Shown piece after piece: positions 3,773 to 43,912 of a stretch of DNA of 64,000 nucleotides; the first letter of the stretch is position 1; every line of letters starts with the position of its first letter. Origin of the DNA: Anaerolineae bacterium. Its GTDB lineage: Bacteria > Chloroflexota > Anaerolineae > JAAYZQ01. Under the pieces are notes generated by a model. The model made no database searches. It had not been told where the DNA came from and saw only the letters and a program-made list of their open reading frames with translations. The stretch lies in assembly GCA_034435455.1 (NCBI GenBank), contig DAOTXL010000102.1:15704-79703 (forward strand). Reading direction: 5' to 3'. The translations under genes were made by a program, and so were the position numbers.

Positions 3773-4600
3773 ATGGGAGAGCTGGAGTTAGACCAGTTAG
3801 CGCGGCTGCTGTACCTGCTTGTCAGCCTCACCCTGCTGGTCTTTATCATCCTGATCGTTTACGTGGTTGTGGCCGGGCGCCGGGCGCGGGCAAAGCAGGC
3901 CCTGCGCCAGCAGGAACAGGCGGACGATCTGGTGATCCGCCCCGCCCTCCAGGTCACCGGTGAGGTTCTATCCCTGGTACGGGAGGTGCAGGGTGGGCCG
4001 TTGCAGGTCGAGGTGGCCGGCACCCGGTATCGGACCCTGGCCGAGGTGACCGACCCTCAGGTGAAACGCCGGGTCCTGGATGCGGCGATAGAGTTTATTC
4101 AGTTCACCGGGGTGTTGGGGGCGGGGACCATGAGGCCGGCCCCGCTGGAAAAGACCCACCGGTGGCGGGAGGATTTACGCCAGGGTAGCCAGGCCGATCT
4201 GGAGCGGGTGCGTGTCGCCGCTTCAGAAGCGGCCCCCCAGCCCCCAGCACCGACCGAGGTCGAGCAACAATTTCTGAGCCTGTTGGTCGAACTGGGCCAG
4301 GCCCCGCCGCCGCCCGAAAAGCCCAGCCTGATCGGCTCTATCCAGCGCCGCCTGCATCCCCCCCCCACCGAACAGGGGCAGGCCCGCAGCTTTATAGACG
4401 ACATTGATGCAATTGTCCAGCGGCGCGTGCAGATGATCCCGGCGCTGGCCGGCCGGGGCCTGCATGTGCGCCCCGGTCCGGGCGGAAAGGTGGTCTTTCA
4501 GTTCGAGGGGGAGCAATACAGCAGCCTGGACGACCTCCCTAATCTGACGGCCCGCCAGTTGGTCCAGGATGCCATCCAGGAGTGGGATGAAACGACGTAA
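3773..4600 (+). CDS. hypothetical membrane-anchored protein
   Basis: ORF 3743-4600. A GGAGGAG RBS precedes ATG at 3773 (MGELELDQ). Single N-terminal hydrophobic helix (LLYLLVSLTLLVFIILIVYVVVA). No recognisable domain. Confidence 0.5.
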   Translation: MGELELDQLARLLYLLVSLTLLVFIILIVYVVVAGRRARAKQALRQQEQADDLVIRPALQVTGEVLSLVREVQGGPLQVEVAGTRYRTLAEVTDPQVKRRVLDAAIEFIQFTGVLGAGTMRPAPLEKTHRWREDLRQGSQADLERVRVAASEAAPQPPAPTEVEQQFLSLLVELGQAPPPPEKPSLIGSIQRRLHPPPTEQGQARSFIDDIDAIVQRRVQMIPALAGRGLHVRPGPGGKVVFQFEGEQYSSLDDLPNLTARQLVQDAIQEWDETT

Positions 4601-38240: not shown

Positions 38241-39104
38241 CTATTTGCCTTTCTTCTTCTTGTCCTTCTTCTTTTCTCCCTTCCCCTTCTTCCCCTTCTT
38301 TCCTTCCTTCTCGGCAACCTTTTCGTCGTCCTTTTTTCCCTTTGCCATTTTTTCCTCCTTCTTGCCCTTGGCCACGGGATCGGGGGGGAGGTAGTCGAGT
38401 TCGCGGCTCAACACCTCTACCAGCGTCCGCAAGGTTTTGACCCGGGCATACCACTTGCAGTTGCCCTCGACGATGGTCCACGGCGCGGTGAGGGTGCTCG
38501 TTTTGAGCAGCATGTCGTTGATCGCCTCTTCGTACGCCTCCCATTTGGCGCGGTTGCGCCAGTCCTCGTCGGTCAGCTTCCATGCTTTGTAGGGGGTTTC
38601 CTGGCGTTCCAGGAAGCGGCGCAACTGCTCCTCCCGGCTGATGTGGATCCAGAACTTGACCAGGATGGTGCCAAAGTCCACCAGTTGTCGCTCGAACTCG
38701 TTGATCTCGCGGTAGGCACGCTTCCATTCCTCCTCGGTGCAAAAGCCCTCCAGCCGCTCGACCAATACCCGGCCGTACCAGCTCCGGTCGAAGATGAGGA
38801 TCTGCTTTTCATCGGGCGGCCTGAGCCGACGCCAAAAGCGATACAGGTAGTGGTGGGTTTTATCCTCCCCTTGCGGCGCAGCGATGGGATAGACCTCATA
38901 GCCGCGCGGGTCCAGCCGCTCGGTGACCCGCTTGATGTTGCCCCCCTTACCGCCGGCGTCCCAGCCTTCATAGACGATGACCAGCGGGCGTTTGTGCACA
39001 TACAGTTGATAGGCCAGCGCTCGCAGTTGCAACTGGTAGCGGATTAGATTGTGGACATATTCCTCTTTGGTCAGGCTTTTGCTCAGGTCGACCGTCTCCA
39101 GCAT
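38241..39104 (-). CDS. ppk2: polyphosphate kinase 2 family protein with Lys-rich C-terminal tail
   Basis: Walker A VYEGWDAGGKGG and the PPK2 lid FDRSWYGRVLVER. The final 45 aa are KGKKEEK..KKGKKGKGEKKKDKKKKGK. Confidence 0.8.
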   Translation of the reverse strand: MLETVDLSKSLTKEEYVHNLIRYQLQLRALAYQLYVHKRPLVIVYEGWDAGGKGGNIKRVTERLDPRGYEVYPIAAPQGEDKTHHYLYRFWRRLRPPDEKQILIFDRSWYGRVLVERLEGFCTEEEWKRAYREINEFERQLVDFGTILVKFWIHISREEQLRRFLERQETPYKAWKLTDEDWRNRAKWEAYEEAINDMLLKTSTLTAPWTIVEGNCKWYARVKTLRTLVEVLSRELDYLPPDPVAKGKKEEKMAKGKKDDEKVAEKEGKKGKKGKGEKKKDKKKKGK

Positions 39105-39114
39105 GGCCCCTCCC

Positions 39115-39945
39115 CTACTCTTCGTCTCCCTGCGCTTCCGCTTCGGCGCTCAGTTCCGCATCCAGGGCGCGGCTGTCGGCGCCTTCCTCGTCGGCCATCG
39201 CCTCGTCCGGTGCTTCCGGCGGCAGCTCCAGGCCCCGGTCTTTCAGGGCTTCCTCCAGCCGGCCGATGATGGTCTGAAAGATCTTGATCCGTGCCCAACG
39301 CCGGTCGGTGGCTTCGACAATGGTCCACGGCCCCCATTCGGTGTCGGTCCGTTCCAGCATCTCTTCGATGGCGACCAAATAGGCGTCGTATTGGCGGTGG
39401 TGCTCCCAATCCTCCGGCTGCACGTGCCAGCTCTTGAGGGGGTCCTTCTCCAGCATTTTGAAGCGCCGGGCCTGCTCCTCCCGGCTGATGTGCAGGAAGA
39501 ACTTGAGGATCACATAGCCATCATCGGCCAGGGTCCGCTCGAAATCCACGATGTCCCGGTAGCCCTTGCGCCACTCTTCCTCCGGCGTCAGGCCCTCCAC
39601 CCGCTCGACCAGCACCCGGCCGTACCAACTGCGGTCAAAGATGGCCATTTCGCCATAGTTGGGGATCTTGAGCCAGAAACGCCACAGCCAGGGCAGGTGG
39701 GTTTCAAAGGTGCGCGGTGCCTGGATCGGGTAGAGCTTGAAGCCCCGCGGGTCGAGCCGCGAGGTGAGCAGGTTGATGGAGGTGCCCTTGCCGGCGGCAT
39801 CCCAGCCCTCGAAGACGATGATGGTGGGGATCTGGGCATCCCAACAGGCCTTTTCCAGATCGTACAGCCGCCGTTGCAGGCGAGGCAACAGCCGCTTGTA
39901 CTCCCCTTTCGGCAGTTTATGGGTGAGATCGACCTTTTCGAGCAT
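39115..39945 (-). CDS. ppk2: polyphosphate kinase 2 family protein with acidic C-terminal tail
   Basis: Walker A VFEGWDAAGKGT and FDRSWYGRVLVER. C-terminal DEAMADEEGADS..AEAEAQGDEE. Confidence 0.8.
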   Translation of the reverse strand: MLEKVDLTHKLPKGEYKRLLPRLQRRLYDLEKACWDAQIPTIIVFEGWDAAGKGTSINLLTSRLDPRGFKLYPIQAPRTFETHLPWLWRFWLKIPNYGEMAIFDRSWYGRVLVERVEGLTPEEEWRKGYRDIVDFERTLADDGYVILKFFLHISREEQARRFKMLEKDPLKSWHVQPEDWEHHRQYDAYLVAIEEMLERTDTEWGPWTIVEATDRRWARIKIFQTIIGRLEEALKDRGLELPPEAPDEAMADEEGADSRALDAELSAEAEAQGDEE

Positions 39946-39981
39946 AGGGGATACCCTCCCTTTGAAATAACGGTATTCCTT

Positions 39982-40037
39982 GGGCAGCCGCGAGGGCGGC
40001 CCCTACCCTGGGCAGCCGCGAGGGCGGCCCCTACCCT
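39982..40037. repeat. perfect tandem direct repeat 2 x 28 nt (GGGCAGCCGCGAGGGCGGCCCCTACCCT)
   Basis: Read directly. Lies between the PPK2 and CYTH-CHAD genes. Confidence 0.8.
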
Positions 40038-40074
40038 TTTCATCCCTGGGGGTGTGCCAGGGAACAGGATGACT

Positions 40075-42003
40075 CTATAAAACTGCAATGGCCTGGGCTG
40101 CCAGCCGGCTGAGGGTGGCGCTGTTGAACCGCTGCCAGGCCTGAGGAAAGGCCGCCAGCAGACGCTGGAGGTCCGATTGCCTGACGGCCAGGTAGGCGGC
40201 CACGCCGGGGGCAATTACCGGCGCCGGCCGGTCGGGCGAGGGGATCGCGGCGACCTCACCGCCCCACGTGCCCCACATCAAAAAGTCGCGCAGGATGCGG
40301 CTGGCCACCACGGCATCCTGTAGCTCGCCCAGGTGGTCCTGCAGGGCGACGACCTCTTCGATGAGAGCGGGGGTCTCTGGCCCCAACAGTTCGTTCAAGA
40401 ACTCTAGCGTGTAGCGCAGTTGCTTGCAGGCGATGCGCAGGGCGTGGAGCCTGGTGAGGGGCGGGTTGGGGATGCTCACCCACTCGTCGTAGGCGCGGAC
40501 GGCCGCCAGCCGCTCATAGACCGTCACAGGCGCCACGTGGCGCACGCGGCAGGGGCGGGGTTCCCCGTCGTCCAGGGTGATGGGCCGGCTGCCCAGGCCC
40601 TCGGTCTCCACAAATTCGGTAAAGCGCTCCCGGAAGCGGGCATATTTTCCACCATCCAGGTAGGCGAGCATGGCCCGGCGGGCTGCGTCGCGCTGTTCCT
40701 CCAACACGGCCAGAAATCGGTCCAGGCTGCCCCGTTGCGCTTCGGGCAGGGTATCCAGATAAGCCTGGACTCGGGCACGAAAGACATCCAGGTCGCGCAC
40801 TGCGCCCAGCACCCGGCCGGTGCGCCGCAGCCCTTTCAGCAGTGGGGCGGTGACCTGGGGTTCGTAATAGTCGCCAAAGATGCGAAAGGCAGCCCGCATC
40901 CGCCGCGTGGCGACGCGCATATCGTGCAGCGCCTCGATATCCTGGCCCAGCCGTGTGCCCGGTTCGTGGAAGAGCATCCGCCGCCAGTGGAAGCGCAAGA
41001 CCTTGCGCCCCGCCTCGCTCATCAGGTCATCCGGTTCGAGCCCCGGCTTTTTGAGCAGTTCAACCTGGGGAGCCGGTGAGGGGGGGGGAGCTATCGGCAC
41101 CCCTTCGGTGGCGGCCGGTGGTGGCCGGTGGACCTCCACAGGCCCGGCGGCGGGAGCCAGGTTCAGCGCCTGGGGGGGAAAGATGCCCAGCCGCTGTCGG
41201 CGGAAGGCGCTCAGCCAGTGACGAGCGCGGCGCGACGACAGCCCGGCCCGCTCCAGCATCTCGGCGCGGGGCAGGCCGTCGTCCCAGGCCAGCAGCAGAC
41301 GGGCGCGGCGGGCAAGCGCCTCCCGTTCCCTGCTCAGCCGCTCGACGAGGGCCCGTTCCGCAGGGGTCAGACGCGGCTCTGAGCCGGCCGGGGACAGAGC
41401 CAGGGCCCGCTCGAACTTGGAGCGGGGCTCTGGAACCAGGCCCCACCCCGCTTGCAGGTCGGCCACCAGCCGGTTCAGGTCTGCCTGGCTGCCATCGGCC
41501 AGGAGCTCGGCCTCCAGTTCCAGGAAGCTGGCGATGGGTTGGCGTGTCTCGCCCCCGTACACCTCGACGCGGTCCAGGGCCAGTTCGGCCACGGCGCGGT
41601 CGCCGTCATACACCAGACGACAGTGGCGGGTCTGTTCCAGCTCAAAGAGGGGGAGGAGCGGCTCATCGCCGCACAAACGCAGGGCCAGGTCGCGGGCCCG
41701 GCCGGGCGGCCATTCCTGGGGAGGCAGGGGGCCGTCCAGTTCGACCTGATGCTCGGCCCGGCGATGGATCGCCCCGGCGGCGGTGCCCAGGCCCTTGAGG
41801 GTGGCCAGGGTGCGCCCCTCCTGCCGGCGCAACCGGCAGGCATAGCCGCCGGCCAGGATGGCCCGGTCGGCCGTATCCAGGTAGCGGTCGTGGAGCCGGG
41901 TCAGCGAGGCCCGGCCCAGGGTGAATCCGGCCAGCGCCGTCGCTTCCAGCAGGCGCCGGAACGTCTGCTCATCGGGAACGCCGAATTTGGCCTCGATCTC
42001 CAC
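40075..42003 (-). CDS. CYTH domain plus CHAD domain protein (triphosphate tunnel metalloenzyme fused to CHAD)
   Basis: N-terminal MEIEAKF (ExExK triphosphate-tunnel start). C-terminal CHAD helices with conserved His pattern (ALHDMRVATRRMRAAFRIF). Confidence 0.7.
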   Translation of the reverse strand: MEIEAKFGVPDEQTFRRLLEATALAGFTLGRASLTRLHDRYLDTADRAILAGGYACRLRRQEGRTLATLKGLGTAAGAIHRRAEHQVELDGPLPPQEWPPGRARDLALRLCGDEPLLPLFELEQTRHCRLVYDGDRAVAELALDRVEVYGGETRQPIASFLELEAELLADGSQADLNRLVADLQAGWGLVPEPRSKFERALALSPAGSEPRLTPAERALVERLSREREALARRARLLLAWDDGLPRAEMLERAGLSSRRARHWLSAFRRQRLGIFPPQALNLAPAAGPVEVHRPPPAATEGVPIAPPPSPAPQVELLKKPGLEPDDLMSEAGRKVLRFHWRRMLFHEPGTRLGQDIEALHDMRVATRRMRAAFRIFGDYYEPQVTAPLLKGLRRTGRVLGAVRDLDVFRARVQAYLDTLPEAQRGSLDRFLAVLEEQRDAARRAMLAYLDGGKYARFRERFTEFVETEGLGSRPITLDDGEPRPCRVRHVAPVTVYERLAAVRAYDEWVSIPNPPLTRLHALRIACKQLRYTLEFLNELLGPETPALIEEVVALQDHLGELQDAVVASRILRDFLMWGTWGGEVAAIPSPDRPAPVIAPGVAAYLAVRQSDLQRLLAAFPQAWQRFNSATLSRLAAQAIAVL

Positions 42004-42124: not shown

Positions 42125-43912
42125 TTACAGGTTATCAACCCGCGACCGCAGTTGCCCCAACGTGGCGTTGATCGTGCCCAACTCCCCCTCGATCCGGGCC
42201 AGTTTTTGCTGTTCGGCGCGGACAAAGCGGGTGTAGGGTTCGATCGCCTCGCGGAGCCGTTGCAGGCTGTGGGCCAGTTCCCGCTCGAATTCCGCGCTCA
42301 TGGCGGCTATCAACTGATGGCGCAGGTTCTCCAGTTTTTCGTTCAGGTCGTTCTTGGCCCGCCGCCGCCTGGCGGGGATGATGAGGAGGCCCACCACAGC
42401 CAGGGCCCCGGCCGACAGGAGGCCGGTAAAGTCGAGCAGCGCCCCGTGGAGGATGGCCACCAGCAGGGCCCCCAACCCCACCGCCCCTACCTGGCTCAGG
42501 GCCAGCCCCGCCACCGCGTCGCGCACACTCAGGGCCAGTTGGCGGGCCTCGGCCTCGCGGTCGTAGCTCAGCACCACCTCTTTGGCCGCCCGCCCCACCG
42601 AATCGAGCAGCGCCTGGCGGTTGTACTCGAACGTGCCGCCCACCTGGCCGATGATCCGCTCCTCTCCCCGCGGTGCCGGCGAATCGGCCCGCTCGTGCAT
42701 CCTGGCCCGATGGCGCTCCAGGTACTCCAGCGTCGCCTGCCATTGGCGCAGGTCTCTGTCTACCAGCCAATCGATCAGGGTGTGGACCTGGCGTTCGATC
42801 TCATAGGGGGTGTCGGCCACCACCTGCCGCTCGAACTCGCCGCGGATGCGTTGGGTGTTGATCAGGTCCAAGACGCGGGCCAGGCGCAACGTCTCGTCCA
42901 GGTAGGCCATGCCCCGGTTGTTCATAGCCAGCAGCACCTTCTCGATATCGGCCAGGCGGTAGCGAAAGTCGCGCTGCATGTCGGCGCGATAGATCTCGAG
43001 CTGGCCCTCGATGTTTTCGATGGCCTTGAGGTCTTGGGCCAGGAGCGCCAGACGGTGGCGGGCCAGTTCCAGGTAGCCGGCTGCCAGCCGCTCGCCCACG
43101 CCCAGGGGGTTCTGCAGCTTGAGCTGCACCCGGCTCTTTTGATCCAGCGTTTTGAGGATATACACTTCGACCGCCTCGAAGCGGCTGGCTGCCCACAGCT
43201 TTTCCCGCTCGGCGCGGCTTTCGGCCTGCTTGGCCCGCAATGCCAGCCGGGCCGACACCGGAAAGACCTCGGGGGCAAAGCCCAGCAGGGCCAGGGCATT
43301 CTGCCGGATATAGTCCACCACCTGGGCGATCTCGGCCTCCTCCAGCAGGTCGATCTTGTTGAGCAGGATGACCACCTTTTTGCCCCACTCGCGGATGCGC
43401 TCCATGAAGGCCCGTTCGCTCTCGGTGAAGGGCCGGTCGGTGGACGTGACAAAGACCACCAGGTCGCTGCGCGGCACAAATTCCGAGGTCAACTGCTCGT
43501 GGCGGCGGATAATGGCGTTGGTGCCGGGGGTATCCACCAGGTTGATCTCGCGCAGGAACTCGGCCGGATGGGTGACCGCCAGTACCCCTTCTTCTACCAC
43601 CTCCTGGTCAGGGGTATCGCCATGGCGCAGGATATAGATCTGAGCGGTGGTGGGCGTCACCCCCTCAGGCAGGAAGCGCTCACCCAGCAGGGCGTTGATA
43701 AAGGCCGACTTGCCGCTGTTGAACTCGCCGACGATGACCAGCAGGAACAGCTCATCGAGCTGGCGCAGCGACTTTTGCAGCGTCTTCTGGTCCTCCGGCG
43801 TGACCTCAAAGCCGGCCAGGGCCAGTTGCAGGCGCTCCAGGGCCTCTTTTTCATCGGTGAGCAGTTGGGCTTGTTTGCGGTTCAGAACAGTTCGGAGCAC
43901 GGTTACCCTCAC
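42125..43912 (-). CDS. bacterial dynamin-like GTPase
   Basis: G1 GEFNSGKSAFINALLG, G3 DTPG, and TKxD of the dynamin family. Long helical stalk. Hydrophobic paddle near the C-terminus (LGALLVAILHGALLDFTGLLSAGALAVVGLLI). Confidence 0.7.
   Translation of the reverse strand: MRVTVLRTVLNRKQAQLLTDEKEALERLQLALAGFEVTPEDQKTLQKSLRQLDELFLLVIVGEFNSGKSAFINALLGERFLPEGVTPTTAQIYILRHGDTPDQEVVEEGVLAVTHPAEFLREINLVDTPGTNAIIRRHEQLTSEFVPRSDLVVFVTSTDRPFTESERAFMERIREWGKKVVILLNKIDLLEEAEIAQVVDYIRQNALALLGFAPEVFPVSARLALRAKQAESRAEREKLWAASRFEAVEVYILKTLDQKSRVQLKLQNPLGVGERLAAGYLELARHRLALLAQDLKAIENIEGQLEIYRADMQRDFRYRLADIEKVLLAMNNRGMAYLDETLRLARVLDLINTQRIRGEFERQVVADTPYEIERQVHTLIDWLVDRDLRQWQATLEYLERHRARMHERADSPAPRGEERIIGQVGGTFEYNRQALLDSVGRAAKEVVLSYDREAEARQLALSVRDAVAGLALSQVGAVGLGALLVAILHGALLDFTGLLSAGALAVVGLLIIPARRRRAKNDLNEKLENLRHQLIAAMSAEFERELAHSLQRLREAIEPYTRFVRAEQQKLARIEGELGTINATLGQLRSRVDNL

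Follow-up and report, generated by a model that had tools for sequence, protein, structure and literature searches.

Do two adjacent kinase genes of the PPK2 family, with C-terminal tails of opposite charge, encode two independent enzymes or the two halves of one enzyme that in most bacteria is a single polypeptide, and what might such tails be for? This question is raised by a locus in a 64,000-nucleotide stretch of an Anaerolineae bacterium genome (Chloroflexota; GenBank assembly GCA_034435455.1, contig DAOTXL010000102.1, positions 15,704 to 79,703), hereafter called the window, to which all positions below refer. An earlier note, made from the sequence of the window alone, had described two tandem PPK2-family kinases with a lysine-rich and an acidic tail, respectively, next to a CYTH-CHAD protein, and had proposed that the tails either mediate heterodimerization or anchor one paralog to polyphosphate (polyP). 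Our preferred reading, to which we assign a probability of roughly 0.6, is that the two genes, here named PPK2-D and PPK2-K, encode a split class II polyP:AMP phosphotransferase (PAP) which is likely to be a hetero-oligomer, and that the lysine tail of PPK2-K serves as a tether to a polyanion. The features of the two kinase genes are as follows.

39115..39945, minus strand: PPK2-D gene, 276 aa, N-type subunit, PF03976 E=5e-73
39784-39807, minus strand: PPK2-D Walker A, GWDAAGKG
39397-39411, minus strand: PPK2-D degenerate lid, DWEHH
39118..39231, minus strand: PPK2-D acidic tail, 38 aa, net charge -14
39118-39174, minus strand: conserved terminal motif SRALDAELSAEAEAQGDEE of the PPK2-D acidic tail
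39105..39114, minus strand: spacer GGGAGGGGCC, 10 nt, containing the Shine-Dalgarno sequence for PPK2-K
38241..39104, minus strand: PPK2-K gene, 287 aa, C-type subunit, PF03976 E=3e-86
38943-38966, minus strand: PPK2-K Walker A, GWDAGGKG
38766-38789, minus strand: PPK2-K Walker B, DRSWYG
38550-38564, minus strand: PPK2-K lid, DWRNR
38244..38384, minus strand: PPK2-K Lys-rich tail, 47 aa, 22 Lys, 0 Arg, net charge +12

Both proteins match PF03976 over its full length (289 bits for PPK2-K and 246 bits for PPK2-D, against a cutoff of 22.3) and have a Walker A motif, which bears out the description of two tandem PPK2-family kinases; they are 43% identical to each other. The classes of PPK2 differ in the residue that follows Walker B, which is Gly in class II, Asn in class I and Glu in class III (PMC8776046), and PPK2-D and PPK2-K both have the class II signature, with Gly after Walker B and the sequence FDRSWYG. 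The segment FDRSWYGRVLVER, at first taken for the lid, is in fact the Walker B region with this signature Gly, the lid being DWRNR in PPK2-K and DWEHH in PPK2-D. The accompanying statement that tandem or fused domains define classes II and III was likewise too broad, because two-domain PPK2 enzymes occur in class II only and not in class III (PMC11875558). The best NCBIfam model for both proteins was TIGR03708, polyP:AMP phosphotransferase, with scores (373.6 bits for PPK2-K, 304.8 bits for PPK2-D) that lie below its equivalog cutoff of 547.65 bits and with each protein covering only profile positions 260-493. In the PDB, the closest structure for both was the two-domain enzyme PA3455 (3CZP; E 1e-110 and 6e-103), followed by the one-domain structures 9GIA and 9H8J, and the closest relative of PPK2-K was the C-terminal domain of 3CZP. 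Where the fused type is a single protein of about 490-500 aa, the window has two open reading frames (ORFs) parted by a stop codon, 10 nt and a change of frame.

We compared the two kinases with the individual domains of 105 fused two-domain class II homologs (PAPs). PPK2-K was 57-66% identical to the C-domains and 39-52% identical to the N-domains of these proteins, and PPK2-D was closer to the N-domain in 102 of the 105. Viewed from the side of the fused proteins, all 105 N-domains were closer to PPK2-D and all 105 C-domains were closer to PPK2-K. The earlier note had called for a class-assignment phylogeny, and a neighbor-joining tree of 146 domain sequences separated N-type from C-type sequences in 98 of 100 bootstraps, with PPK2-D on the N side and PPK2-K on the C side. 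Typing with hidden Markov models (HMMs) built only from the fused N- and C-domains agreed, PPK2-D being N-like and PPK2-K C-like. Both kinases are class II PPK2s, PPK2-D being the counterpart of the N-domain and PPK2-K that of the C-domain of two-domain PAPs, and the gene order, PPK2-D followed by PPK2-K, mirrors the N-to-C order of the fused enzyme.

Scans of representative genomes and metagenomes, in which genes were typed with the same HMMs, recovered 105 further split loci. They belong to Chloroflexota (Anaerolineae, Chloroflexia, Thermoflexus), Acidobacteriota (Bryobacteraceae, Solibacteraceae, Terriglobia), Nitrospiraceae and Planctomycetota. The N-type gene comes first, on the same strand, in every one of the 105 loci; stop and start overlap in 52 of 104 pairs and a gap of 0-15 nt separates the genes in 32 more (84/104 together). 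In the window, the 10-nt spacer with its Shine-Dalgarno sequence points to translational coupling of the two genes. The possibility that a single fused two-domain gene was broken here by a sequencing or assembly frameshift has next to no chance of being correct, as 105 other loci are equally split, the PPK2-D stop, the 10-nt spacer and the PPK2-K start are identical in three independent assemblies (NCBI, JGI, ENA), PPK2-D has a conserved 38-aa tail of its own, and PPK2-K has its own Shine-Dalgarno sequence and an N-terminus, MLETVDL, that is homologous to position 1 of the domain. What can be said for such an artefact is that a nearby gene differs by an assembly-level indel from its copy in a near-identical metagenome-assembled genome (MAG), described below.

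Pairwise distances among the N-type proteins closely followed those among their C-type partners (mirror-tree r=0.87; Mantel 0/2000), which supports the inheritance of the two genes as a pair. A lone N-type gene was not seen, all of the 18 solo loci being C-like. One outcome foreseen earlier, that the two genes would belong to unrelated PPK2 subfamilies with no co-occurrence, is not what we found, as both are class II and are paired in the 105 related loci. The same observations bear on the idea that PPK2-D and PPK2-K are independent paralogs, which would form separate homo-oligomers with different substrates and share only their regulation, with the tails as lineage-specific low-complexity decoration. 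Single-domain class II enzymes such as BcPPK2 and LfPPK2 are active alone (PMC11875558), PPK2-D retains Walker A and Walker B, and tail sequences vary widely in length. However, the invariant N-then-C order with its frequent stop/start overlap, the strongly mirrored N and C trees, the absence of lone N-type genes from the solo loci, the grouping of PPK2-D with non-catalytic N-domains (98% bootstrap) along with its lack of the lid arginines, and a tail charge sign that is conserved across two phyla make this idea very improbable.

The two halves are also structurally compatible with the arrangement of the fused enzyme. An AlphaFold2 (AF2) model of PPK2-D joined directly to PPK2-K, predicted from an alignment of fused homologs, had a predicted local distance difference test score (pLDDT) of 86 and a predicted template modeling (TM) score of 0.80, with disordered tails, and superposed on the whole 3CZP chain with a target-normalized TM score of 0.94. 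Within this arrangement the two subunits appear to differ in catalytic capacity. PPK2-K retains every residue that is invariant in the 105 C-domains, including R59, R167, K176 and the lid residues R183-N-R185, whereas PPK2-D has L59, L165, H174 and E181-H-H183 at the equivalent columns, largely as in the N-domains of fused enzymes. Conserved basic lid residues stabilize the transferred phosphoryl group (PMC8776046), and the basic lid and channel residues that characterize a competent PPK2 domain are thus present in PPK2-K and missing from PPK2-D. In PA3455, the N-terminal domain is inactive and the C-terminal domain is active (PMC11968564). Because PPK2-K keeps and PPK2-D loses the basic lid residues, and because the N-domain of PA3455 is inactive, we infer a division of labor in which PPK2-K is the catalytic subunit and PPK2-D a structural or regulatory partner.

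The direction of evolution between fused and split forms was considered in the domain tree, in which most split sequences fell into one group among fused clades for both halves, with the fused proteins of loci L044 and L047 nested inside. Monophyly of the main split clade, as we had defined it beforehand, was not recovered (19/100 and 3/100 bootstraps), and these trees weakly favor fission of a fused gene over genes that were never fused. The nesting within the split clade is seen in N and C halves alike, and for L044 and L047 (Chloroflexaceae, Candidatus Oscillochloris fontis) as well as for a third fused protein, P0010, whose linker contains the split-clade motif DAELRAAMESL and whose C-terminus bears a basic tail. 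These three cases point to a secondary re-fusion of split genes.

We then considered the tails. The Lys-rich tail of PPK2-K is present as described, although its length is 47 aa and not 45; it has 22 Lys and no Arg (net +12), is rich in K, G, E and D, and is predicted to be disordered or weakly helical (AF2 pLDDT 46-65). The acidic tail is borne out as well, comprising the last 38 aa of PPK2-D with a net charge of -14 and an AF2 pLDDT below 50. Both are conserved: all 17 single-domain K-type orthologs, the cores of which are 86-99% identical, have Lys-rich tails of +9 to +20, and 113 of 115 D-type orthologs have acidic tails. The tails are therefore not species-specific low complexity, the outcome that would have spoken against the earlier proposal. 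A 19-aa terminal motif, SESLEAELAAEAEAQAGEE, is found in 97 of 117 D-type orthologs and stands at the very C-terminus in 80. In 39 loci, mostly Acidobacteriota where the taxonomy is known, the N-type protein ends in a related motif, DAELRxAMESL. In the fused enzymes, by contrast, the inter-domain linker is rich in Pro, Lys and Arg, the C-terminus stops at the end of the domain (median tail length 0), and a basic tail occurs in only 1 of 105. We rejected the possibility that the acidic tail is a remnant of the fused inter-domain linker, as 104 of 105 linkers are of the Pro/Lys/Arg-rich kind and unrelated to it, P0010 alone carrying DAELRAAMESL.

A broader survey of tails covered 65 usable metagenomic split pairs, with C-type tails of net charge +4 or higher counted as basic and N-type tails of -9 or lower as strongly acidic. 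The C-type tail was basic in 61 of the 65 pairs, with Lys outnumbering Arg by 4:1 (K:R = 505:121) despite a GC content of 65%. A contrast is also seen within the window, where the CYTH-CHAD protein has 9 Lys and 80 Arg while the PPK2-K tail has 22 Lys and 0 Arg. A strongly acidic N-type tail was found in only 19 of the 65 pairs, mostly in close relatives of the window, and acidobacterial N-type tails carry only about -1 to -5. In two loci, L139 and L158, the C-type protein has no tail and the N-type protein has a basic one (PKAKAKPKAKAKPKAKAGGK, or KKKKEDD...GKSGKSGKGRG) with no acidic partner, an apparent transfer of the basic tail from one subunit to the other. Both tails are missing from nine more distant split pairs (L028, L032, L033, L036, L037, L046, L048, L049 and L052).

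These distributions can be set against the first of the two earlier proposals, in its strongest form a charge zipper in which the acidic tail of PPK2-D binds the basic tail of PPK2-K, replaces the lost covalent linker and drives or stabilizes the heterodimer. Such a zipper would agree with the near cancellation of the two tails in the window (+12 versus -14), with the conservation of both in the window's lineage and with the essential absence of tails from fused enzymes. It would also agree with the near clade (n=17), in which tail charges (rho=-0.50) and tail lengths (rho=+0.51) scale together (p about 0.04), a correlation that ignores kinship. Over the 65 pairs, however, N- and C-tail charges are uncorrelated (rho=-0.08, p=0.53), basic tails are far more frequent than strongly acidic partners, the weakly charged acidobacterial N-type tails and the two loci with swapped tails offer little or nothing for a basic tail to pair with, the nine pairs without tails do without a zipper, and the split halves already have the core interface of the fused enzyme available, as in the model on 3CZP. 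We therefore consider a zipper quite unlikely, and as a general rule heterodimerization through complementary charged tails is not supported. In the near clade the acidic tail may have a local charge-balancing role, and it seems to have been added later, in some Chloroflexota lineages whose Lys tails are the longest.

What remains across the family is that each complex has about one basic tail, biased towards Lys, which may be on either subunit and may or may not have an acidic counterpart. This pattern argues against a general charge zipper and for a third, polyanionic partner. The enzyme's own substrate, polyP, is an obvious candidate for this partner, and the second earlier proposal, a Lys-tail anchor to polyP, fits the distribution of the tails better than a zipper does. 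In P. aeruginosa, polyP granules are enriched in the fused ortholog Ppk2C (PA3455); among the PPKs of R. eutropha, only those with a basic isoelectric point localize to such granules; and the Lys-rich protein AlgP localizes to them as well (PMC9239181). The CHAD domain encoded beside the pair, known to bind polyP (PMC6537752), also fits this candidate. Alternatively, the Lys tail may bind DNA or RNA and place the enzyme on the nucleoid or on ribosomes, with the acidic tail preventing non-specific sticking. The Lys-rich disordered tails of AlgP and PhaF do bind DNA, as do histone H1-like tails, polyP granules are found in the nucleoid region (PMC9239181, PMC6537752), and the co-encoded CYTH-CHAD protein carries a conserved helix-turn-helix (HTH). 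This alternative nonetheless seems unlikely to us, in that DNA is a far less dense polyanion than the substrate of the enzyme, the composition of the tail (rich in K, G, E and D) is not of the DNA-binding K/A/P-rich type of AlgP, and the rest of the module is entirely polyP-related.

Basic tails are not confined to the split C-type proteins. The fused PAP of L031 (a Gemmatimonadales MAG) and the solo class II PPK2 of L065 (a Herpetosiphonaceae MAG) also end in a Lys-rich stretch, which indicates that basic tails arose more than once in the family. In six other loci (L097:2312-3478, L098:298-1734, L111, L135, L101 and L104) the C-type protein continues past the Lys stretch into a DUF498 domain (PF04430, E 1e-20), and the Lys-rich segment is there a linker and not a tail.

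Part of the conservation at the end of the N-type protein may have its cause at the level of the DNA. The last codons of the N-type gene contain the Shine-Dalgarno sequence for the C-type gene in 63 of the 105 pairs, and in the window (39105-39130) the last residues of PPK2-D overlap the Shine-Dalgarno-like sequence for PPK2-K. The terminal G-E-E or G-G-G (GGNGARGAR and similar) is thus probably constrained as a ribosome-binding sequence rather than as protein. This overlap leaves the upstream LEAELAAEAEAQ or DAELRxAMESL part and the long acidic stretches unexplained. We had considered the whole N-type terminal motif as a protein-level docking motif; given the overlap in 63/105 pairs, that is only partly tenable.

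The third gene of the locus encodes the CYTH-CHAD protein. Its features, and that of the spacer which separates it from PPK2-D, are as follows.

40075..42003, minus strand: CYTH (triphosphate tunnel metalloenzyme, TTM)-HTH-CHAD gene, 642 aa, first gene of the module
about 41374-42000, minus strand: CYTH domain, beginning with the EIEAK (ExExK) motif
41188-41313, minus strand: HTH, between CYTH and CHAD in the same gene
40288-41001, minus strand: CHAD domain, aa 335-572
39981-40036/7: perfect 28-bp x2 tandem repeat, inside the 129-nt spacer from the CYTH-CHAD stop to the PPK2-D start

The fusion of CYTH and CHAD was confirmed by Pfam matches within one ORF, to CHAD (PF05235; 189.8 bits against a cutoff of 25.6, E=9e-56, aa 335-572) and to CYTH (PF01928; 52 bits against a cutoff of 23.2, E=1e-13). 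The N-terminal MEIEAK corresponds to the ExExK motif, with E2, E4 and K6 near-invariant among orthologs. The relatives of the protein in the PDB are the CHAD structures 3E0S/6QV7 (E 3e-30) and YgiF, 5A60 (E 3e-10), and the CHAD of the window protein, which matches its profile over the full length, is predicted to be of the polyP-binding type. CHAD is an established polyP-binding module, and CHAD proteins are often encoded in operons with polyP enzymes (PMC6537752). Between the two domains lies a Pfam HTH_28 match in the window protein (E 4.7e-5), and HTH_23 matches are present in 7 of 10 orthologs (best E 2.9e-11). With such a DNA-binding module, a triphosphatase-like protein that binds polyP could tie polyP granules to DNA or to gene regulation. 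One CYTH-HTH-CHAD ortholog (L093:45-2066) has an insert in the HTH-to-CHAD interval that matches domain III of the Ppx/GppA phosphatases (E 2e-9).

The window is nearly identical to a contig of the MAG GCA_964559445.1 (locus L001). In that MAG, a 1-nt indel and two substitutions fall within 10 bp of the HTH region (window ~41220-41230, L001 ~3860-3870), with the result that CYTH and CHAD are called there as two genes, while the ORF in the window is intact. Because the frame of the window matches that of the orthologs, the break in the MAG is probably an assembly or polishing error.

A CHAD gene, mostly of the CYTH-(HTH)-CHAD type, adjoins the kinase pair or lies within ~2 kb of it in 22 of the 105 split loci, as compared with 2 of 32 fused loci. 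The 22 loci, among which are 12 of the window's 16 nearest relatives, are without exception Chloroflexota-like. The three-gene module is kept in the window's lineage and is not a general property of split PPK2s.

From what was observed, namely the orthology of the domains, the pairing and order of the genes, the conservation and distribution of the tails and the structural compatibility of the two halves, we infer the following for this locus, which would be a three-gene module for polyP utilization in a Chloroflexota genome. PPK2-D and PPK2-K would be made in coupled fashion from adjacent cistrons and assemble into a hetero-oligomer, most likely one that reproduces the pseudo-dimer of fused PA3455. 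PPK2-K would supply the active site for AMP + polyP(n) -> ADP + polyP(n-1), with PPK2-D as the structural or regulatory partner. The Lys-only disordered tail of PPK2-K would most likely be a polyanion tether that holds the complex to chains or granules of polyP, to which the co-encoded CHAD protein would bind as well. The acidic tail of PPK2-D would be a later, lineage-specific addition whose probable role, in the absence of polyP, is to balance or mask the long Lys tail, and in many relatives its extreme end would double at the DNA level as a ribosome-binding sequence for the downstream gene. A more elaborate version is a latch that polyP can displace: the acidic tail of PPK2-D, as a mimic of polyP, would occupy the Lys tail or the basic channel, and long-chain polyP would displace it, recruit the complex to the granule beside the CHAD protein and switch on AMP phosphorylation, making the tails a substrate-gated tether that evolved after the split. 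We regard this version as speculative and doubtful.

Several points weigh against a tethered split PAP as set out here. PPK2 hetero-oligomerization "has not yet been observed" experimentally (PMC11968564), and the model of the joined subunits speaks for compatibility only, its arrangement having been driven by the fused-homolog alignment and by an artificial covalent link. PPK2-D has an intact Walker A and Walker B under strong constraint, and may bind nucleotide or polyP, or even be active. As for the tether, DNA and RNA are ligands of Lys-rich tails besides polyP, and sequence does not discriminate among the three; fused PA3455 reaches the granules without a basic tail; the nine more distant pairs listed above have neither tail; and the CHAD synteny is restricted to a Chloroflexota-like subset.

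Transcription of the module on the minus strand runs from CYTH-HTH-CHAD through the repeat to PPK2-D and PPK2-K. The 28-bp repeat is perfect, as first described (Tandem Repeats Finder score 114, 100% match), but its position needed correction, as in this order it lies between CYTH-CHAD and PPK2-D. The two copies are the only ones in the window, where none would be expected by chance; they fold no better than shuffled sequence (z=-1.2) and have no match in Rfam. The repeat is also present in the near-identical MAG (L001), and in other genomes in which CYTH-CHAD abuts the pair the spacer is too short to hold it (e.g., 34 nt in L005), although no dedicated search of other loci was made. A dispersed element of the repetitive extragenic palindromic kind, a structured RNA and a terminator were each considered and rejected given the single site, the fold z of -1.2, the lack of an Rfam match and the lack of a terminator-like site, and we treat the repeat as a duplication that is local to the spacer. 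Neither a promoter-like nor a terminator-like site was found between 37.9 and 42.4 kb, which is consistent with one transcript for the module but does not prove it. The flanking genes are housekeeping genes. Downstream are an RluD-like pseudouridine synthase, signal peptidase II, a DksA/TraR-type protein and isoleucyl-tRNA synthetase, and upstream are a dynamin-like GTPase and a radical SAM protein. The dynamin-like gene (42125-43912, minus strand; 595 aa; Dynamin_N, E 6e-25) precedes CYTH-CHAD by 121 nt and has the same orientation.

Class II PPK2s, which use polyP to regenerate ADP from AMP, are important for energy homeostasis in bacteria and have found wide use as catalysts of ATP regeneration. 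So far, the split form has been a computational prediction, for which this locus and its ~100 relatives provide a clean, conserved test case, and the relatives include genera with cultured members (Thermoflexus, Candidatus Solibacter). A Lys tail that does tether the enzyme to polyP would account for the retention of a soluble kinase on its polymeric substrate or on granules, and could be transferred as a tag to other proteins in the engineering of processive polyP-dependent enzymes. Masking of the Lys tail by the acidic one, if it takes place, would make the two disordered tails a simple case of substrate-gated regulation.

The earlier note had called the arrangement an undescribed split two-domain PPK2. 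The split arrangement is supported, but it is not undescribed, having been reported computationally by Matsumoto, Matsuura & Longo (2024; Proteins 93:972; PMC11968564). These authors found that adjacent class II PPK2 genes are almost exclusively single-domain and that an N-like with a C-like gene is the commonest combination, and proposed, backed by AF2 models of heterotetramers, that such pairs may hetero-oligomerize and recapitulate the two-domain enzyme. Their pairs are defined as an N-like and a C-like gene less than 500 bp apart in the same direction; here, the gap is 10 nt and the strand is the same. The words tail, lysine, acidic, charged, disordered and CHAD have 0 occurrences in the text of that paper, and CYTH is also unmentioned. 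In the open-access literature, we found no description of PPK2 tails and no experimentally shown PPK2 heteromer. Relative to the 2024 paper, we did not find described the conserved Lys tail of the C-type protein, the acidic tail and motif of the N-type protein, the strict, translationally coupled order with the N-type gene first, or the CHAD synteny.

Among known systems, PA3455 (PPK2C) of P. aeruginosa (3CZP) is the best PDB match for both proteins; like them it has the class II Gly, and its N-domain is inactive and its C-domain active. It differs in being one 500-aa polypeptide with a short linker and no charged tails, where the window has two polypeptides with tails of 38 and 47 aa. BcPPK2 and LfPPK2 (9GIA, 9H8J; PMC11875558) are likewise single-domain class II enzymes, 43-52% identical in a structure-based alignment, but they are stand-alone enzymes of Bacillota that fall in a clade of their own, with the solo C-like sequences, and have no adjacent N-type partner. 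The tails of AlgP, PhaF and histone H1-like proteins are, like that of PPK2-K, disordered, C-terminal and polycationic, and have been linked to association with polyP granules (PMC9239181). The AlgP tail consists of KPAA repeats on a DNA-binding protein, whereas the tail of split PPK2s is K/G/E/D-rich, 30-50 aa long and carried by the polyP-consuming enzyme itself; PPK2-K has no KPAA repeats, and its likeness to AlgP-type or PASK/KPM-type tails is one of composition only, which we take as a lead. Finally, the E. coli triphosphatase YgiF (TTM/CYTH-CHAD, 5A60) likewise has an N-terminal CYTH with ExExK and a C-terminal CHAD; the window protein (642 aa, against 433 aa for YgiF) adds between the two a conserved HTH of ~40 aa, which YgiF does not have, and a Pro-rich linker.

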